A stretch of 25,630 nt of DNA from Candidatus Moraniibacteriota bacterium (GTDB taxonomy: Bacteria > Patescibacteriota > Minisyncoccia > Moranbacterales > UBA1568), in contig JAUYFO010000092.1 of assembly GCA_030690925.1 (NCBI GenBank), positions 1-25,630 on the forward strand, read 5' to 3'. Shown here piece by piece: positions 7,541 through 18,871 of this stretch. Each line of letters begins with the position of its first letter. Positions within the stretch are counted from its first letter, which is position 1. The position numbers and the translations under genes were made by a program. Under the pieces are notes generated by a model, which ran no database searches, was not told the DNA's origin, and saw only the letters and a list, made by a program, of their open reading frames with translations.

Positions 7541-7943
7541 TGGTGGAGTTGATGGGAATTGCACCCATGTCCAGAGAAGTTTTTCCAAAATAATCTACAA
7601 GCGTAGTCAACCTTGTATACGGGTGGGAGGTAGAAGGAAAACAAAACCCTCACACAAGTTCCTCTTTTGCAATACGATTAGGAAGTAAAAGAAAAAGAAA
7701 TTCTTCCGTCACGTCTCGATAATATGACACCAGCCTCTCCCTACCGAGAATCAGGATGCTGATGGCGACGCCAGTAATTAGGCGAGCGCAAGACTGTAAG
7801 AAGGGGCAAAAGCTTGCGCCAGTGCGTTCTTGGTCTTTGTGATGAAGTTTGCATTTATCATCGTGAGAGCGATATTTACGACCGTGCCCTCAAGGTCGGC
7901 TTGCATATTTTGAAAGTACAGCCTGTCGAGTCTCAACAACCCC
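7541..7943 (-). ncRNA. ssrA: tmRNA (ssrA), about 403 nt
   Basis: 5' GGGGTTG...CTCGAC pairs with 3' CAACTCC-ACCA including the G3.U alanine identity pair. T-arm-like GGACATGGGTGCAATTCCCATC. Internal tag frame 7852-7778 (ANFITKTKNALAQAFAPSYSLALA*). Adjacent to smpB. Confidence 0.95.
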
Positions 7944-8097: not shown

Positions 8098-8541
8098 TTA
8101 GGTCTTCATCGCTCGGCGAATCCTTCTTTGGGCTTCACGTTTGCCAATGTCGGCTCGCCGGTCGTATTCTTTTTTTCCCTTACCAACAGCAAACAGGAGC
8201 TTCACAAGTTGCTTCTTAGTATACAACCGAATCGGCACTAATGTCAAGCCTTCTGTGCGTGATTTTCCGATGAGAGAGCGGATTTCTCGCTTGCGAAGGA
8301 GGAGCTTTCGTGGTCTGGTAGCATCGTGGCTGGTATCACGGTGAGCTTGGGCGTAGCGGGGGATGAGGGCATTGGTCAGGTAGAGCTCGCTTCCTTTGAC
8401 GGTGACGAAAGCTCCTTTCAGGCTGGCATGGCCAGTTTTGACCGATTTGACCTCGGCTCCGGTCAATACTAAACCGGCCTCGTACTGGTCGGCGAGGGTA
8501 TAATCGAACGAAGCTCGTTTGTTGGTAGCTATGGTAGTCAT
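8098..8541 (-). CDS. smpB: SsrA-binding protein SmpB
   Basis: NKRASFDY...EAGLVLTGAEVKSVK...RKLLLRKREI...KGKKEYDRR. Confidence 0.98.
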   Translation of the reverse strand: MTTIATNKRASFDYTLADQYEAGLVLTGAEVKSVKTGHASLKGAFVTVKGSELYLTNALIPRYAQAHRDTSHDATRPRKLLLRKREIRSLIGKSRTEGLTLVPIRLYTKKQLVKLLFAVGKGKKEYDRRADIGKREAQRRIRRAMKT

Positions 8542-12701: not shown

Positions 12702-13283
12702 ATGAAGCAAATCACTTTTTTTTTGGTACGGCACGGCGAAGCGGAAAATAACGTCCGCCATATTCTGAATTCAGCTCCGGTGAAGCAAGAGTATCCGCTC
12801 ACGGAACATGGAAAAGAACAGGCAACTAGGACTGCCAAGCAGCTGGCAACAGCGGGGGCTGATGTTCTTTTTAGTTCGCCCATCCTGCGGGCCAAGGAAA
12901 CGGCTGAGAGTATCGCGGCAGCAACCGGATTGCCGATCCAGTTTGATAATCGTTTGTGGGAAGTGGGGATGGGGAGATTCAATAACCATATCCAGCAAGA
13001 GCTCTTGGACAAGTATCCCGATCCCGAGATGCGGCTCTCTCCGGATGTAGCAGATGGGATGGAAAGTTTTCTAGAGGTGCGCAGTCGCTTGGATGATTTT
13101 TTGGGTGAAGTAAAAGAGAAGTATCTCGGAAAAAAAGTGATTATCGTGTCGCATGGTGACCCGCTGGAACAGCTCCATGGTATTCTGACACAGGAAGGGC
13201 CAGGCCGAGCAGCCGCTGGCTGGTATCCGGAAAAAGGCTCATGTACGGAAGTAGTCTGGGCAATCAAGGGGGAGTCAGTATAA
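12702..13283 (+). CDS. Histidine phosphatase (phosphoglycerate mutase-like) family protein
   Basis: LVRHGEAENN (RHG), SSPILRAKETA, LWEVGMG, IVSHGD. Confidence 0.9.
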   Translation: MKQITFFLVRHGEAENNVRHILNSAPVKQEYPLTEHGKEQATRTAKQLATAGADVLFSSPILRAKETAESIAAATGLPIQFDNRLWEVGMGRFNNHIQQELLDKYPDPEMRLSPDVADGMESFLEVRSRLDDFLGEVKEKYLGKKVIIVSHGDPLEQLHGILTQEGPGRAAAGWYPEKGSCTEVVWAIKGESV

Positions 13284-13321
13284 TAAGGGTTCCTTTTCTT
13301 TTTTCTCTGTAAAAAGCCCCA

Positions 13322-13353: not shown

Positions 13354-14442
13354 ATGAAATCACTCTCACTCAAAGATACGCTCGATCACCTCCCTGGGAG
13401 CTTGTTTATTACGGATCGGGAGTCACGGGTCCTCTACGCCAGTGCTGCCTTGGAGCAGCGTACGGGTTTCTCGGTAGCGGAAATCGTCGGCAAGAAACCA
13501 GGACAACTGTGGGGTGGAAAAATGGAAAAAACCTTCTATCGTGAGCTGTGGCAGACTATCGGTACGGAACGCCGGGCCTTTGTAGGACTGGTGAACAACC
13601 GCAAGAAAAGCGGCGCTCGTCGTGACGAACATATCTTTATTGTCCCTATTTGCAATCGCCTGGGAGAGACGGAGTATTTCGCCGAAATTCATCCGGATTT
13701 GGCCGGAAGAACAGCGGAAGAGGCTTTTGGGCGGGAGTTTCTTCGGCGGACAGAAACCATGATACAGGATCGGGACTTTTTCACATGGATTATTGAGAGT
13801 CTGCAGAAAAAAAAAGATGGTACGTTGGTCAGGTTGGATCAGTCTCTCTGGTACGGAGGTTTCCACGATGCCGCTCAATTTTTCCGGGAAACCCTGGTCA
13901 CACCGATGGAACAGGTATTTGCACGGCGCAAGGATGACGCTCTGCTCATAACCCATGCCCAAGAGAACCCGGAGAAGTTTGCGGCACTCTACCAGAAATA
14001 TGTGGTTTCGATAGGGGCGTATTTCTCCCGTCGGCTACACGGAGATAGTGCAGTGGCAGAGGATCTTACCCAGGAGGTCTTTGTCCGAGCGTTTCGTTAT
14101 CTTCCTGGTTTCCGCATGACCAATGCTTCCTACTACACCTACCTGCTTCGTTTGGCTCACAACATTTTAGTCAACCACTTTCGTACCCTACATCGCCAGG
14201 TCATGTCGTATCAGCATGATGGGGAGATGGAGAATTTCGTGGCCAAGAGCGATCACTCGGGGGAGGATGATATGGTGACTTTGCTCAAAACATTGGGGGA
14301 GAAAGAGAAGGCCATCATGCTTCTCAAGTATCGTGATGGGCTGAAGGCGAAGGAAATTGCTGCCCTGGTGGGCAAGAGTGAAAATGCGGTCAAGCTGATC
14401 CTGTCCCGAACGCGCAAGAGACTGAAAAAGAACCTTCAGTAA
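13354..14442 (+). CDS. PAS domain-ECF sigma-70 factor fusion protein
   Basis: Residues ~7-115 form a PAS/PAC domain (ITD...LYA...TGFS..EIVGK...YRELW...NNRKKSG...IVPI.N..GET.YF). Residues ~194-277 are sigma region 2 (DDALL...FAALYQKY...AEDLTQEVFVRAF...YLLRLAHNILVNHFR). Residues ~306-362 are sigma region 4 (LGEKEKAIMLLKYRDGLKAKEIAALVGKSENAVKLILSRTRKRL). One uninterrupted frame. Confidence 0.9.
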   Translation: MKSLSLKDTLDHLPGSLFITDRESRVLYASAALEQRTGFSVAEIVGKKPGQLWGGKMEKTFYRELWQTIGTERRAFVGLVNNRKKSGARRDEHIFIVPICNRLGETEYFAEIHPDLAGRTAEEAFGREFLRRTETMIQDRDFFTWIIESLQKKKDGTLVRLDQSLWYGGFHDAAQFFRETLVTPMEQVFARRKDDALLITHAQENPEKFAALYQKYVVSIGAYFSRRLHGDSAVAEDLTQEVFVRAFRYLPGFRMTNASYYTYLLRLAHNILVNHFRTLHRQVMSYQHDGEMENFVAKSDHSGEDDMVTLLKTLGEKEKAIMLLKYRDGLKAKEIAALVGKSENAVKLILSRTRKRLKKNLQ

Positions 14443-14553
14443 GGGAAAAATCTTGGAACAAAGAGTAATGGGTGGCACATGACACCTTTTTTGTTTTGTG
14501 GTGTTTAATACAGTGCAGCCTGCAGAATAATTCGCCAATTATTGAGGGTCTCT

Positions 14554-16668
14554 ATGCCACTCTACAAGATCCAGAAGCGTAATGGGACTATCGTAGACTT
14601 CGAGCCTGGTAAGATTAAGAACGCTATCGCCAAGGCCGCTCTATCGATCGGTCAGAGCGACCCCCTCATTCCGGAAGTGTTGGTAGCGGAGGTAGCGGTG
14701 GAGCTCGAAGAAAAGTGGAGCGATCAGATTCCCAGCGTGGAGCAGATTCAGGATGTGGTAGAGGACGTACTGATTCGTTTCGACTACGCTGAGATGGCCA
14801 AGGCCTATATTTTGTATCGGGAGAAGCGGCGTGAGGCCCGTGAGGATAAGAATGTGGTGGTGGAAGTACAGAAAACGGTGGCTGATTATCTCAACCGGGC
14901 CGATTGGCGGGTCAATGCCAATTCCAACCAAGGCTATTCGCTCGGGGGATTGATTCTGAATACGGCTGGCAGCGTCATCGCCAATTACTGGCTCTCCCAT
15001 ATTTACCCGAAAGCTGTTGGTGAGGCGCACCGCAACGGCGATTATCATATTCATGATCTCGATATGTTTTCCGGTTACTGTGCCGGTTGGAGTCTGCGCG
15101 TTCTTCTGGAAGAGGGCTTCAATGGTGTGACCAACAAGATCGAATCGGCACCACCGAAGCACCTTTCCTCGGCCGTGTCGCAGATGGTCAACTTTTTGGG
15201 GACACTGCAGAACGAGTGGGCCGGAGCCCAGGCTTTTTCCAGCTTCGATACCTACATGGCACCTTTTGTGAAGAAGAAGGAATTGGAGTTGCGAGAGGAT
15301 ATCGTTACGTATGGCATGAAGTTTTCTTCGAAAAAGAAAGAGGAAGCCTATGTCAGTGACGCCCTCTATAGCTACGTTTATCAGAATCTGCAGTCATTTG
15401 TCTTTAACTTAAACATTCCGTCCCGTTGGGGCACTCAGACGCCGTTTACCAACATCACGCTGGACTGGGATTGTCCCGAGGATTTGAAAGACAAACGCCT
15501 ATTGTTGGGGGGTAAGCCATTTCCCTACACTTTTGGCGAACTGGGAAAAGAGATGGATATCGTCAACCGGGCTTTCATCGAGATTATGACTCATGGGGAT
15601 GCCTGTGGGCGGACATTTACTTTTCCTATTCCGACTTACAATATCGGCAAGGACTTCGACTGGGAGAGTAAGAAGAATTTACCGTTGTTTGAGATGACGG
15701 CCAAGTACGGGACACCATATTTCCAGAATTTCATCAACTCAGAGCTCAATCCAGGTGACGTGCGTTCCATGTGCTGTCGGTTACAGCTCGACTTACGGGA
15801 ACTACGCAAGCGTGGTGGTGGGCTCTTCGGTTCGGCCGAAATGACAGGTTCCATCGGAGTGGTGACTATCAATGCGGCCCGTATCGGATATCTGACCAAG
15901 GGTGATAAGGAAAAGTTTTTCGCTCAGATCGAGCACCTGATGCAACTAGCCAAGACATCGCTTGAGATAAAACGCAAAGTGATTCAGGAATGGATCGACC
16001 GGGGATTGTTTCCGTACACCAAACGCTACCTCGGGTACCTGAAAAATCACTTCTCGACTATCGGTATCAATGGAGTAAACGAAGCCATCCGTAACTTTAC
16101 TGATGATCAGGAAAATATCACTACCAAGTGGGGCAACGCCTTTGCTGAGGAAGTGCTGGTGTTTATGCAAGAAAAGATTAAGTCGTTTCAGGAAGAAACC
16201 AAGAACTTCTATAACCTAGAGGCCACGCCGGCCGAAGGGACGACCTACCGGTTCGCCAAGGAAGACCGCAAGCGTTTTCCCGATATTCTTCAGGCGGGGA
16301 CCGCGGAAGCCCCCTACTACACCAACTCTTCTCAGGTACCGGTGGGCTATACTGACGATATCTTCGAGGTACTCGATCTCCAGGATAATCTGCAGACCAA
16401 ATATACCGGGGGAACGGTGCTCCACTGCTATATGACCGAAAAGATCTCATCACCGGAAGCTTGTCGCAATCTGGTGCGCAAGATTCTGAGGCACTATCGT
16501 TTGCCGTACATCACCATTACTCCAACCTTTTCCATCTGTCCCAAGCACGGCTATCTCTCGGGTGAATATGATTTTTGTCCCAAGTGCGACGCAGAAATCG
16601 GTACAGTGGGTGAGCGCTTCGACGAGACCTATCGCAAGACCTACATGAGCGCCAAAGCAGAGAAGTAA
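14554..16668 (+). CDS. nrdD: Class III (anaerobic) ribonucleoside-triphosphate reductase, large polypeptide lacking the glycyl-radical segment
   Basis: N-terminal ATP cone (IQKRNG...FEPGKIKNAI...AKAYILYR), YHIHDL, GYCAGWSL, RSMCCRLQLD, LEATPAEG, C-terminal CPKHG...CPKC zinc site. No R-x-x-G-Y motif in this ORF. ATG 14554 preferred to TTG 14542. Confidence 0.93.
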   Translation: MPLYKIQKRNGTIVDFEPGKIKNAIAKAALSIGQSDPLIPEVLVAEVAVELEEKWSDQIPSVEQIQDVVEDVLIRFDYAEMAKAYILYREKRREAREDKNVVVEVQKTVADYLNRADWRVNANSNQGYSLGGLILNTAGSVIANYWLSHIYPKAVGEAHRNGDYHIHDLDMFSGYCAGWSLRVLLEEGFNGVTNKIESAPPKHLSSAVSQMVNFLGTLQNEWAGAQAFSSFDTYMAPFVKKKELELREDIVTYGMKFSSKKKEEAYVSDALYSYVYQNLQSFVFNLNIPSRWGTQTPFTNITLDWDCPEDLKDKRLLLGGKPFPYTFGELGKEMDIVNRAFIEIMTHGDACGRTFTFPIPTYNIGKDFDWESKKNLPLFEMTAKYGTPYFQNFINSELNPGDVRSMCCRLQLDLRELRKRGGGLFGSAEMTGSIGVVTINAARIGYLTKGDKEKFFAQIEHLMQLAKTSLEIKRKVIQEWIDRGLFPYTKRYLGYLKNHFSTIGINGVNEAIRNFTDDQENITTKWGNAFAEEVLVFMQEKIKSFQEETKNFYNLEATPAEGTTYRFAKEDRKRFPDILQAGTAEAPYYTNSSQVPVGYTDDIFEVLDLQDNLQTKYTGGTVLHCYMTEKISSPEACRNLVRKILRHYRLPYITITPTFSICPKHGYLSGEYDFCPKCDAEIGTVGERFDETYRKTYMSAKAEK

Positions 16669-16703: not shown

Positions 16704-16895
16704 ATGGCTGGAGCACAGGTAGCAGATAACGCCGGACGCACCCGCTGTGAAGTGTGGACTCGTGTCATGGGGTACCATCGGCCCGTTTCGCACTTCAACG
16801 TCGGGAAAAAAGCGGAGCACTATTCGCGCAAGCACTTCGAGGAGTGTGTGGCAGACAACGTTTCTTTTGAAGCGCGCTACGGAGAGGCGACCTAA
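16704..16895 (+). CDS. Stand-alone NrdD C-terminal glycyl-radical polypeptide (63 aa)
   Basis: CEVWTRVMGYHRPVSHFNVGKKAEHYSRKHF corresponds to the NrdD glycyl-radical loop (R-V-x-G-Y) and its C-terminal tail. Confidence 0.85.
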   Translation: MAGAQVADNAGRTRCEVWTRVMGYHRPVSHFNVGKKAEHYSRKHFEECVADNVSFEARYGEAT

Positions 16896-16917: not shown

Positions 16918-17622
16918 ATGAAACTTTCGGCCATCCAAAAGTTTACCATTCTCGACTATCCGAACAAGGTAGCGTGTATCGCTTTTACCCCTGGGTGCAA
17001 TATGCGTTGTGGTTTCTGCCACAACCCGGAGTTTGTGCTGCCAGAAAAAATACGCGAACTAGATGGTAACTTCATTGCCGAGGAGACGTTTTTCCGCTTC
17101 CTCGATCAACGGCGGGGACTACTTGAGGGAGTGGTAGTGTCAGGCGGAGAGCCAACCATCTGGCAGGATTTACCCGAATTTTTTGGTAAGATTAAAGCAT
17201 TGGGATTTTTGACCAAGCTTGATACCAATGGCAATCATCCCGAGATGCTTGAGCAGTTACTTCGGGAGAAGCTGGTAGATTATGTGGCTATGGATGTCAA
17301 AACGTCACTGGCTCAGTACCCCAAGCTGGTGGGCGGGGGCGTGAAGTGCAACAACATCGCAGAGAGTATGGAACTTTTGAAATCGTCCGGTACCCCTTAT
17401 GAATTTCGCACGACACTCATCAAAGAGGTACACAATGAAGAAGTACTAGGAGATATGAAGCAGATGCTAGCTGGGGCGGAAAAGTTTTTTTTACAAACCT
17501 TTCGTCCTGGACATACGCTCAATTCCGTTTTTGCAACCTATCATCCATTCTCGAGTGAAGAGACCGACCGGATTGCGCAGACCTTTCAAAAAGAAGTGGC
17601 TTCGGTCAGTATAAGAAATTAA
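16918..17622 (+). CDS. nrdG: Anaerobic RNR activating radical-SAM enzyme
   Basis: GCNMRCGFCHN (CxxxCxxC), VVVSGGEPT, KLDTNG, YEFRTT. ATG 16918 preferred, since the track start 16747 overlaps the small nrdD gene. Confidence 0.92.
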   Translation: MKLSAIQKFTILDYPNKVACIAFTPGCNMRCGFCHNPEFVLPEKIRELDGNFIAEETFFRFLDQRRGLLEGVVVSGGEPTIWQDLPEFFGKIKALGFLTKLDTNGNHPEMLEQLLREKLVDYVAMDVKTSLAQYPKLVGGGVKCNNIAESMELLKSSGTPYEFRTTLIKEVHNEEVLGDMKQMLAGAEKFFLQTFRPGHTLNSVFATYHPFSSEETDRIAQTFQKEVASVSIRN

Positions 17623-17638: not shown

Positions 17639-18871
17639 ATGTTTGAGGTTTTTTCTCTGGTGAAGTTCTTGATCTTGCAGGGGGCTGGACTGGTTATCGC
17701 TCTCATCGCGGCGGGCTTGTTTGTGTACCTCGTTTTACGCAAGCTCCATTCTTCGAGGATTACCCTTTTTCTGTTTTTCTTTTTCTTTGGAACGTGTTTG
17801 CTGTTGTATGTTCCGATGGGTATACCGAGTAGCATCACCTATCCTTTTGGGTTGAAAACCTACGGCCCGGCGGAGGGCCCCTGGCTACCACTAAAAAATG
17901 TTTTTACTTTTTTCCGGCACGTCCGGCAATTTGAACGTGTGGCTGACATCGCGCGGGACCCAAACGTCACCCCGGCGCCGCTCCGTGCCGAAGGCGAGGA
18001 AGTGTCTCTCCATCTCACTACCAAAGAAGTGCTGGCTGAGATAGCGCCGGGAGTGGTGGTGAACTACTGGACATTCGATGGGACCGTGCCGGGGCCGATG
18101 CTGCGCGTGCGAGAAGGAGACATGGTACACGTGACTCTGAGCAATGATTCCAACAGCCTGCACCATCACAGTGTCGATTTTCACGCCGTAACTGGCCCTG
18201 GTGGTGGTGGCGTTGCCACCTATGTGGCTCCCGGAGAGTCTAAAGACTTTCGTTTTCGAGCCCTGAACCCGGGGTTGTATGTTTATCACTGCGCCGCTCC
18301 TAATGTCGCCAATCATATGGCGCACGGTATGTATGGAATGATCTTGGTAGAACCCAAGGAAGGATTGCCACAAGTGGATAAGGAATTCTACGTGATGCAG
18401 GGTGAAGTATATACTGCTGGTAAGATGGGGACTCAGGGTCTCCAAGTGATCGATACCGAGAAGATGCTTTCTGGGAATGCTGAGTATATTATTTTTAATG
18501 GGAGAGTGGGCGGTCTTAACGGAAAAATGACGGCCGCTACCGGGGAAAAGGTACGGATCTACTTCGGGAACGGAGGAGTGAGTGATATTTCTTCCTTTCA
18601 CGTCATTGGAGAAATATTTGATACGGTATACCCGGAGGCTTCTATCGGAGGGGCTCTCTTGAAAAATGTGCAGACAACGCTGGTACCGGCGGGAGGGGCT
18701 ACCATAGTGGAGTTTGGTCTAGAGGTGCCGGGACGCTATATACTGGTCGATCATGCCCTATCACGACTGGATCGTGGGGCTTGGGGGGTGCTCGAGGTGA
18801 CTGGCACAGAGAATCGCGAGGTGTTTGATGCAGCCGTAGATCCTCAGGTTGCCGCTACGCCGGGGCACTAG
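17639..18871 (+). CDS. nirK: Copper-containing nitrite reductase (AniA/class II-like) with two N-terminal TM helices
   Basis: HSVDFHAVTGPGG, YVYHCAAPNVANHMAHGMYG, SSFHVIGEIFD and LVDHALSR supply the type-1/type-2 Cu ligands and the catalytic Asp/His. Confidence 0.9.
   Translation: MFEVFSLVKFLILQGAGLVIALIAAGLFVYLVLRKLHSSRITLFLFFFFFGTCLLLYVPMGIPSSITYPFGLKTYGPAEGPWLPLKNVFTFFRHVRQFERVADIARDPNVTPAPLRAEGEEVSLHLTTKEVLAEIAPGVVVNYWTFDGTVPGPMLRVREGDMVHVTLSNDSNSLHHHSVDFHAVTGPGGGGVATYVAPGESKDFRFRALNPGLYVYHCAAPNVANHMAHGMYGMILVEPKEGLPQVDKEFYVMQGEVYTAGKMGTQGLQVIDTEKMLSGNAEYIIFNGRVGGLNGKMTAATGEKVRIYFGNGGVSDISSFHVIGEIFDTVYPEASIGGALLKNVQTTLVPAGGATIVEFGLEVPGRYILVDHALSRLDRGAWGVLEVTGTENREVFDAAVDPQVAATPGH

Follow-up and report, generated by a model that had tools for sequence, protein, structure and literature searches.

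A gene in a 25,630-nucleotide stretch of a Candidatus Moraniibacteriota genome (assembly GCA_030690925.1, contig JAUYFO010000092.1, positions 1–25,630; hereafter the window) encodes a sigma factor that carries a sensor domain at its N-terminus. The gene occupies positions 13354–14442 of the + strand as a single open reading frame (ORF) of 362 amino acids (aa), in which a PAS domain is followed by an extracytoplasmic function (ECF) sigma factor; we refer to the protein as PAS-ECF. ECF sigma factors are usually controlled by separate anti-sigma proteins. We concluded that PAS-ECF, so far uncharacterised, is a genuine fusion of sensor and sigma factor, that it is conserved, and that a candidate promoter and regulon can be assigned to it. 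We consider it probable that PAS-ECF is the sigma factor that reads a conserved motif ahead of nrdD, the gene for the anaerobic class III ribonucleotide reductase (RNR), and that it thus controls nrdD and nrdG, with nirK and one gene for a membrane protein as further targets in this genome. Beyond this, we infer the sensing chemistry and the self-control of the protein, and with moderate confidence we favor the whole explanation, in which PAS-ECF is a sensor-sigma factor whose PAS domain, probably a flavin-binding one, serves as the redox switch for the nrdD operon.

Pfam searches placed a PAS domain at residues 9–113 of the protein (PF00989, E 7e-8; PAS_9 and PAS_4 likewise passed), Sigma70_r2 (PF04542) at residues 223–281, and Sigma70_r4_2 (PF08281) at residues 308–357. 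The two sigma regions were separated by a 27-aa gap, with no region 3 match. ECF proteins are defined by sigma regions 2 and 4, an absent region 3, and fewer than 50 aa between the two regions (PMC7826278), and by these features PAS-ECF is an ECF (group IV) member of the sigma-70 family. The NCBIfam model of the ECF superfamily, TIGR02937, matched at 72.7 bits (cut-off 42.9), and the best NCBIfam subfamily model, that of BldN (TIGR02952), reached 86.9 bits against a cut-off of 206. An AlphaFold2 model with 33 homologues as input (mean pLDDT 86, pTM 0.65) arranged the protein as a PAS fold, four helices, and then the sigma2 and sigma4 helical bundles; its sole low-confidence or disordered part was residues 284–303, between sigma2 and sigma4. 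Along the + strand, these parts correspond to the PAS domain (residues 7–115; 13372–13698), a helical linker (residues 116–185; 13699–13908), sigma region 2 with its N-terminal lead-in (residues 186–281; 13909–14196), and sigma region 4 (residues 308–362; 14275–14439). The linker, with modelled helices at 119–133, 140–151, 163–166 and 173–188, has a nearly invariant F125 and F129 and an invariant P184, while region 2 and its lead-in include a conserved NASYxTYLLRxAHN block and region 4 includes the conserved recognition helix K(T/S)ENAVKLxLSRxR. A preliminary description of the window, made before any database search, had read the gene as one 362-aa frame containing PAS, a linker, sigma2 and sigma4, and the ORF together with the Pfam and TIGR02937 matches bore this reading out.

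A search over 5.8 billion proteins returned at least 148 protein clusters with PAS, region 2 and region 4, nearly all of them 340–390 aa long and 35–81% identical over their full length. We also scanned one genome per prokaryotic species; 130 genomes encoded a relative, and 80 of the loci (given L numbers below) were compared. All credibly titled relatives came from the Patescibacteria, also known as CPR: Moranbacteria, Magasanikbacteria, Uhrbacteria, Peribacteria, Gracilibacteria, Nomurabacteria and Paceibacteria. Many third-party assemblies with the locus were titled ‘uncultured Bdellovibrionales’ or ‘Gammaproteobacteria’ (L007, L008, L010, L035 and others), and these titles look wrong by gene content and closest relatives. 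In an even sample of 301 genomes across the phylum, the full-length fusion was present in 3, indicating that the family is patchy and occurs in ~1% of sampled species. Because the window derives from a fragmented metagenome-assembled genome of 92 contigs, one might suppose that assembly or gene calling had joined a PAS gene to a sigma gene. We give this idea next to no credence, since the single frame and the conserved linker recur in 130 species genomes and 148 clusters at 31–81% identity; a chimeric join, a concern that the preliminary description had raised, is excluded by an unbroken fusion in at least 130 genomes that were assembled independently.

When we searched with the sigma half of the protein, at least 92 of the best 149 representatives at 50% identity were fused to PAS. 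In a FastTree phylogeny the fused proteins clustered (17 changes, vs 45.6 with shuffled labels) with weak branch support; 9 apparently stand-alone proteins fell inside the fused cluster, and ordinary stand-alone ECFs with ~40% identity adjoined it. The fused clade is likely of single origin.

The closest structural relative of the sensor domain was the FAD-binding PAS1 of NifL from A. vinelandii. This structure (2gj3) was the top PDB sequence match (E 1.6e-13, residues 7–116), followed by the FAD-PAS of MmoS (3ewk, E 5e-11) and then by LOV domains. The modelled PAS superimposed on 2gj3 with a TM score of 0.82 and a root-mean-square deviation of 1.8 Å, and the remaining PAS-domain fold matches listed were LOV domains. 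Among 33 diverse homologues, the invariant PAS residues were Y28, G38, G46, P49, L52, W53, G54, G55, M57, F61, Y62, W66, N82 and P98. Of these, W66 aligned with the Trp of NifL ‘YQALW’, and N82 with the G-beta Asn of NifL ‘VNRRKD’. The F-alpha Trp is the key residue of FAD-binding PAS domains according to a survey of ~3 million PAS domains (bioRxiv 10.1101/2023.04.23.537977). PAS-ECF has this Trp, and its nearest relative by both sequence and fold is an FAD-PAS. Thus, sequence, fold and the signature Trp support the placement of the domain in the NifL/MmoS/Aer flavin-type branch, and the domain probably holds a non-covalent flavin. The preliminary description had likened the PAS to that of NifL, which proved accurate, and W66 and N82, which it had singled out as conserved residues of flavin PAS domains, are invariant among the homologues. 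It had also observed that the Asn of the NifL ‘YAN’ motif is replaced by Ser. That is correct for the protein of the window, but the Ser is confined to the window’s own subclade and Asn is the family consensus.

Other sensing chemistries fitted the domain poorly. Across the 33 homologues, we found no invariant Cys anywhere in the PAS, and no His of residues 1–116 was invariant or nearly so; with neither His nor Cys conserved, heme with a His ligand, LOV photochemistry and Fe-S clusters are excluded. For a LOV photosensor, the position of the adduct Cys (NCRFL) holds KPGQLW; for a heme PAS of the FixL, DosP or Aer2 kind, the axial His is not conserved; and for Fe-S sensing, the PAS offers no invariant Cys or His. 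Nor is the protein a NifL orthologue: TIGR02938 scored 54.4 bits against a cut-off of 242.45, the match covered the PAS part alone, and the position of NifL Glu70 is taken by P49. We hold it to be an evenly balanced question whether the PAS binds flavin and reports redox or oxygen state, with PAS and linker together restraining the sigma factor in one of the two states. The preliminary description had proposed a role of this kind for the PAS, as a cis-encoded anti-sigma switched by a ligand or by redox state.

Evidence on function came from the short region between the sigma gene and nrdD, where the preliminary description had mentioned neither a near-invariant promoter nor nrdD as a conserved target. 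A candidate PAS-ECF-dependent promoter, TGACACCTTTT-N10-GTGTTTA, occupies 14480–14507 on the + strand, 34 nt before the nrdD start. The family consensus is TGACACCTTTT-N10-GYGTTTA, which can be written as TGACAC-N16-YGTTTA and has the geometry of an ECF promoter; the B. subtilis sigma-W consensus, TGAAAC-N16-CGTA, is of similar geometry. The motif was found in 76 of the 80 loci and comprises 11 + 7 nearly invariant positions, some of them beyond those set by the search pattern, with identical spacing at 69 of 81 sites. Of the 69 loci that cover the 5′ end of nrdD, 64 had the motif within 400 nt before this gene (median gap 43.5 nt). Moreover, the motif moves with nrdD where nrdD is displaced (L025, L028, L030) or inverted (L042), and in one sampled genome (G223) that has the sigma gene and nrdD 9 kb apart, the motif was 85 nt before nrdD. 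The preliminary description had proposed GGAAC at 14455–14459 as a possible −35 element; this sequence is not conserved in related loci, and the conserved element begins at 14480.

We examined the motif also at the level of whole genomes. The 724-kb source genome contains exactly two perfect sites, one before nrdD and one on contig C80 (C80:1093-1121, locus L084/L088, − strand), before a gene for a 269-aa polytopic membrane protein (ORF L084:246-1052, −). This protein matched nothing in Pfam or NCBIfam. In L017, the gene right after nrdG encodes a homologue with 57% identity, and on C80 the membrane protein gene has a DsbB-like gene upstream. In the 301-genome sample, the motif was exact in the window genome and in G223 and occurred with one mismatch, before nrdD, in the third fusion genome (G095). 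It was found in 0 of the 298 sampled genomes without the fusion, and a reversed control pattern gave zero matches. Extra copies in other loci preceded nirK (L018), a gene for a rhodanese-domain membrane protein (L018, L020), a 2-hydroxyacid dehydrogenase gene (L047, L071, L072) and a gene for a 150-aa protein (L068, L077). Judged from the DNA, the motif has the features of an ECF-type promoter: it is bipartite, its spacing is fixed, it lies before the target genes, and it co-occurs with the sigma factor. Its rarity within the genome and its co-occurrence with the fusion argue against a housekeeping sigma factor or a general regulator as its reader.

Conserved synteny pointed to the same target. 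Of the 80 loci, 70 had nrdD downstream of the PAS-ECF gene in the same orientation, and in 56 nrdG followed. By comparison, the upstream genes for a histidine phosphatase and for argS were common to the 16–17 closest relatives alone. The preliminary description had named the immediate neighbors correctly, with a His_Phos_1 protein upstream and nrdD downstream, and its claim that no anti-sigma gene flanks the sigma gene held across the 80 loci: no anti-sigma-like gene was conserved beside the PAS-ECF gene, and because there is no conserved neighbor beyond nrdD and nrdG, there is no anti-sigma candidate. PAS and linker were conserved throughout the full-length homologues. With its conserved fused domain and no conserved anti-sigma gene, PAS-ECF has the architecture of a ‘one-component’ ECF.

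The genes behind the motif form an apparent operon on the + strand. The first, nrdD (14542–16668), encodes the class III RNR with an ATP-cone (PF13597, E 1.9e-174; TIGR02487, 458.7 bits vs 326). It is followed by a 63-aa ORF (16704–16895; here grp) with the NrdD C-terminal glycyl-radical motif RVMGY, matching the last 33 positions of PF13597, and by nrdG (16918–17622), which encodes the NrdD-activating radical SAM enzyme (TIGR02495, 193 bits vs 131). The ORF listed for nrdG opens at 16747, and the TIGR02495 match begins at residue 61 of this long ORF; the start is likely the ATG at 16918. Next is nirK (17639–18871), encoding a copper-containing nitrite reductase (TIGR02376, 316.5 bits vs 296.3). 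Gaps between these four genes are of tens of nucleotides or fewer, and nirK is the apparent final gene of the operon. Equivalent glycyl-radical ORFs of 54–94 aa occur in distant relatives (L051, L057, L060, L061), where a separate promoter motif precedes each of them, which makes the split of the glycyl-radical end look conserved rather than the product of a frameshift. A separate glycyl-radical peptide recalls a replaceable ‘spare part’ like GrcA.

The sigma gene itself appears to be transcribed separately. A sigma-70-like promoter candidate, TGGGCA-16-TATAAT, lies upstream at 13257–13284 (+) and matches the consensus at 10 of 12 positions, which is the evidence for it, and a terminator scan detected a terminator-like hairpin with a T-run at 14470–14497 (+) that would end the sigma gene, its 3′ arm doubling as the −35 block of the promoter that follows. 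In 39 of 64 loci, GACACC had the corresponding GGTGTC arm 3–10 nt before it, and in 10 loci the TGA stop of the sigma gene forms the first three bases of the motif. We found no motif upstream of the sigma gene in the window or in nearly all loci, which suggests that PAS-ECF is probably not autoregulated; the exception is L018, with its copy before a nirK gene that precedes the sigma gene.

The source genome (724 kb in 92 contigs, 84% complete) encodes NrdR and the alpha subunit of a class I RNR (above the TIGR02506 cut-off), and no CRP/FNR-type protein scored above cut-off in this 84%-complete assembly. PAS-ECF carries the sole PAS domain found there. A second, ordinary ECF without an extension is encoded at C28:13937-14472 (locus L002:1393-1926) and is truncated by the contig end; a small secreted Gly/Met-rich protein precedes it. 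The preliminary description had presented PAS-ECF as a minimal regulator for a reduced genome. This is a reasonable framing, but the genome keeps both NrdR and the second ECF.

These observations suggest how the system might operate. PAS-ECF would be transcribed from its own housekeeping-type promoter, ending at the terminator that overlaps the next −35 block; such a promoter and terminator of its own suggest that the protein is made constitutively and controlled post-translationally. With the PAS cofactor oxidised, the PAS and linker would keep the sigma factor inactive, either by masking sigma2/sigma4 or through an oligomeric change. With the cofactor reduced under anoxia, the sigma factor would bind core RNA polymerase and fire the nrdD-grp-nrdG-nirK operon. 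The cell would thereby turn from its class I RNR, which depends on O2, to the O2-sensitive enzyme of class III, in place of FNR-type control, and NrdR may provide a second control layer. In NifL, the oxidised flavin marks the inhibitory state. The reduced state of PAS-ECF would be the active one given this polarity, the low-oxygen functions of NrdD and NirK, and the availability of class I RNR for oxic use. That the sigma factor is itself the oxygen or redox receptor, with a flavin PAS gating promoter recognition so that the change between RNR classes I and III needs no FNR, we put at somewhat below an even chance.

Several findings weigh against this explanation, and they bear on more than one of its parts. 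The linker, on which restraint of the sigma factor would depend, has no detectable similarity to known anti-sigma domains in a sequence-only comparison (profile vs PDB; Pfam); a profile of 30 linkers gave no PDB match better than E 0.13, and the matches were designed or unrelated proteins. The direction of the switch is deduced from target-gene physiology. As to the cofactor, the E-alpha motif of the PAS family is KPGxLWGGxM, in contrast to NESILSNGT in NifL, and it differs from MmoS and Aer as well; the invariant P49 aligns with NifL Glu70, a residue of the proposed proton relay; and flavokinase/FAD synthetase (RibF; PF01687, PF06574) was not found in the 84%-complete genome, so any flavoprotein would need imported FMN or FAD. 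In addition, CPR histidine kinases with no assigned signal have a PAS of the same subtype. These facts on the PAS and its cofactor would suit a sigma factor that is dedicated to nrdD but whose PAS binds some other small ligand or serves as a dimerisation or stability module. We judge this alternative to be unlikely, because the best matches to the domain, by sequence and by fold, are PAS domains that bind FAD or FMN, neither the FAD-signature Trp nor the G-beta Asn varies, and the targets have O2-sensitive or low-O2 functions. A sigma factor that is active when oxidised, and re-supplies NrdD parts after oxygen damage, is unlikely also, and by our estimate slightly more so. The separate promoter copies before the glycyl-radical peptide genes of four distant relatives would accord with such a role, as would one weaker motif copy before an Hsp20 gene (L077), but nirK and class III RNR typically function at low oxygen, and in the NifL analogy it is the oxidised flavin that inhibits.

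The proposal that PAS-ECF reads the nrdD motif faces objections of its own. The TGACA of the −35 block also resembles the sigma-70 hexamer TTGACA, and stand-alone sister ECFs have a near-identical sigma4 recognition helix, so by sequence the fused clade is not alone in its promoter specificity. The motif also contains ACAC...GTGT, faintly like NrdR half-sites, and both NrdR and the second ECF are present in the genome. It is thus conceivable that the housekeeping sigma factor, the second ECF or NrdR reads the motif and that PAS-ECF is merely a neighbor with other targets. We regard this as quite improbable. A sigma-70 reading requires a 19-nt spacer to the best −10-like hexamer, TTTAAT, and is at odds with the wider conservation of the motif and its two genome copies. 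An NrdR box is equally poorly matched, for the motif is no palindrome, its half-sites are wrongly spaced, GCGT at 12 of 80 sites breaks the ACAC/GTGT symmetry, and true NrdR-box palindromes stand separately upstream of the motif in some loci. Lastly, the motif was present in 3 of 3 fusion genomes vs 0 of 298 others.

PAS-ECF shares features with several known systems. ‘One-component’ ECFs that have extensions and no anti-sigma factor have been reviewed (PMC8999054, PMC8103513). ECF41, ECF42, ECF44/CorE and ECF56/SigG1 likewise combine a sigma2-sigma4 core with a fused domain, have no nearby anti-sigma gene, and have targets adjoining. Their extensions are C-terminal (SnoaL-like, TPR or Cys-rich), whereas that of PAS-ECF is an N-terminal, cofactor-type PAS, and unlike them the PAS-ECF gene is apparently not autoregulated. 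Extra sequence before sigma2 is found in BldN/ECF121, SigC/ECF36s4, SigR′/ECF12s1 and the planctomycetal former ECF87–89, but none of those N-terminal extensions is a PAS: some are short, others are pro-peptides or span the membrane, and no ligand-binding fold has been recognised in them. The SigC extension has been proposed to hinder DNA contact, and the reviews state that there is no mechanistic information for ECF N-terminal extensions (PMC7826278, PMC8103513). PAS-fused ECFs receive no mention in the classification and review texts PMC7826278, PMC8999054, PMC8103513 and PMC7671368, and our literature searches found no paper on PAS-fused ECFs or on CPR sigma factors. The claim of the preliminary description that no ECF with an N-terminal PAS has been characterised therefore agrees with these four papers. 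An unnamed ECF group beyond those treated in these texts may hold the PAS-ECFs.

Among sensors, NifL PAS1, MmoS and Aer share with PAS-ECF the signature F-alpha Trp and G-beta Asn and are closest in sequence and fold. NifL is in addition a redox sensor over an O2-sensitive enzyme system, as PAS-ECF would be, but the output of NifL is a kinase-like domain acting on NifA, whereas that of PAS-ECF is the fused sigma factor. In E. coli and relatives, FNR activates nrdDG (with NrdR repression) and so does the same job of providing class III RNR at low oxygen; FNR, however, is an Fe-S activator of the CRP family that works on the sigma-70 holoenzyme, whereas in PAS-ECF the sensor is a PAS domain and the effector is the sigma subunit. 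EL222-type LOV-HTH proteins fuse a flavin PAS to a sigma4-like, LuxR-type helix-turn-helix (HTH) that in EL222 is masked when inactive, and EL222 (8a5r) was a weak match to PAS-ECF region 4 in the PDB sequence search. EL222 differs in being a light-driven transcription factor with a LOV Cys, while PAS-ECF has no conserved Cys and its output is a complete sigma factor.

If our explanation is true, PAS-ECF would link a redox signal to promoter choice by a shorter path than any known so far, and it would explain how bacteria that lack FNR time the use of an O2-sensitive RNR and of nitrite reductase. Characterised ‘one-component’ ECFs are few, and their C-terminal extensions are of unclear ligand specificity. 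Our interest is high because the system is directly testable: there is a defined protein, a defined promoter of ~100 bp and a definite predicted signal, which is useful as the Patescibacteria hosts are uncultured. The sigma-promoter pair might also serve as an orthogonal, perhaps redox-gated, part for synthetic circuits.

The sensor may have originated in a kinase. A PAS-HisKA-HATPase kinase of G223 (G223:C30:5879-7018, locus L090:380-1519), encoded 2 kb upstream of the PAS-sigma gene of that genome, has the same PAS subtype (…P-RLWGNVMNKTFYKNMW…; LWG..M..FY..W), and the start of its HisKA (‘KSEFI’) aligned with linker F125..F129 in the first linker helix. PAS-only matches to other large CPR proteins were frequent. 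The alignment suggests that a PAS-histidine kinase of this sort may have supplied both the PAS and the first linker helix. From the likeness of the linker to the HisKA start, the fusion may have arisen from a NifL-like PAS histidine kinase with the kinase core swapped for a sigma factor. A dihydroorotate dehydrogenase gene lies between the G223 kinase and PAS-sigma genes.

The region between the sigma gene and nrdD held further elements in some loci. Palindromes resembling NrdR boxes, such as ACACTATATATAGTGT in L048, were seen 20–40 nt upstream of the TGACACC block, and AT-rich palindromes of this kind also occurred in L031, L033, L034, L043, L050 and L058, which fits dual control by NrdR; the window’s own sigma-nrdD intergenic region had no NrdR-box-like palindrome. 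In seven related loci (L046, L049, L055, L056, L059, L063, L081), a ~120-nt leader between the motif and nrdD was conserved, with invariant blocks GTGTA(C/T)AGTC, GGGTGC and GTTTGTG and a predicted hairpin showing some compensatory changes; this leader could be a cis-regulatory RNA of nrdD in its clade. Rfam gave no match in the sigma-nrdD region of the window nor in the long leader of L049. Five Uhrbacteria loci (L067, L070, L074, L075, L076) had a hairpin, GTACGGA ... TCCGTAC, between the −10 block and nrdD, with GGAG in or near the loop, right before the start codon, a possible translational control element. Elsewhere in the window, a tmRNA gene (tag ANFITKTKNALAQAFAPSYSLALA) adjoins smpB, the two lying at 7541–7943 (−) and 8098–8541 (−).

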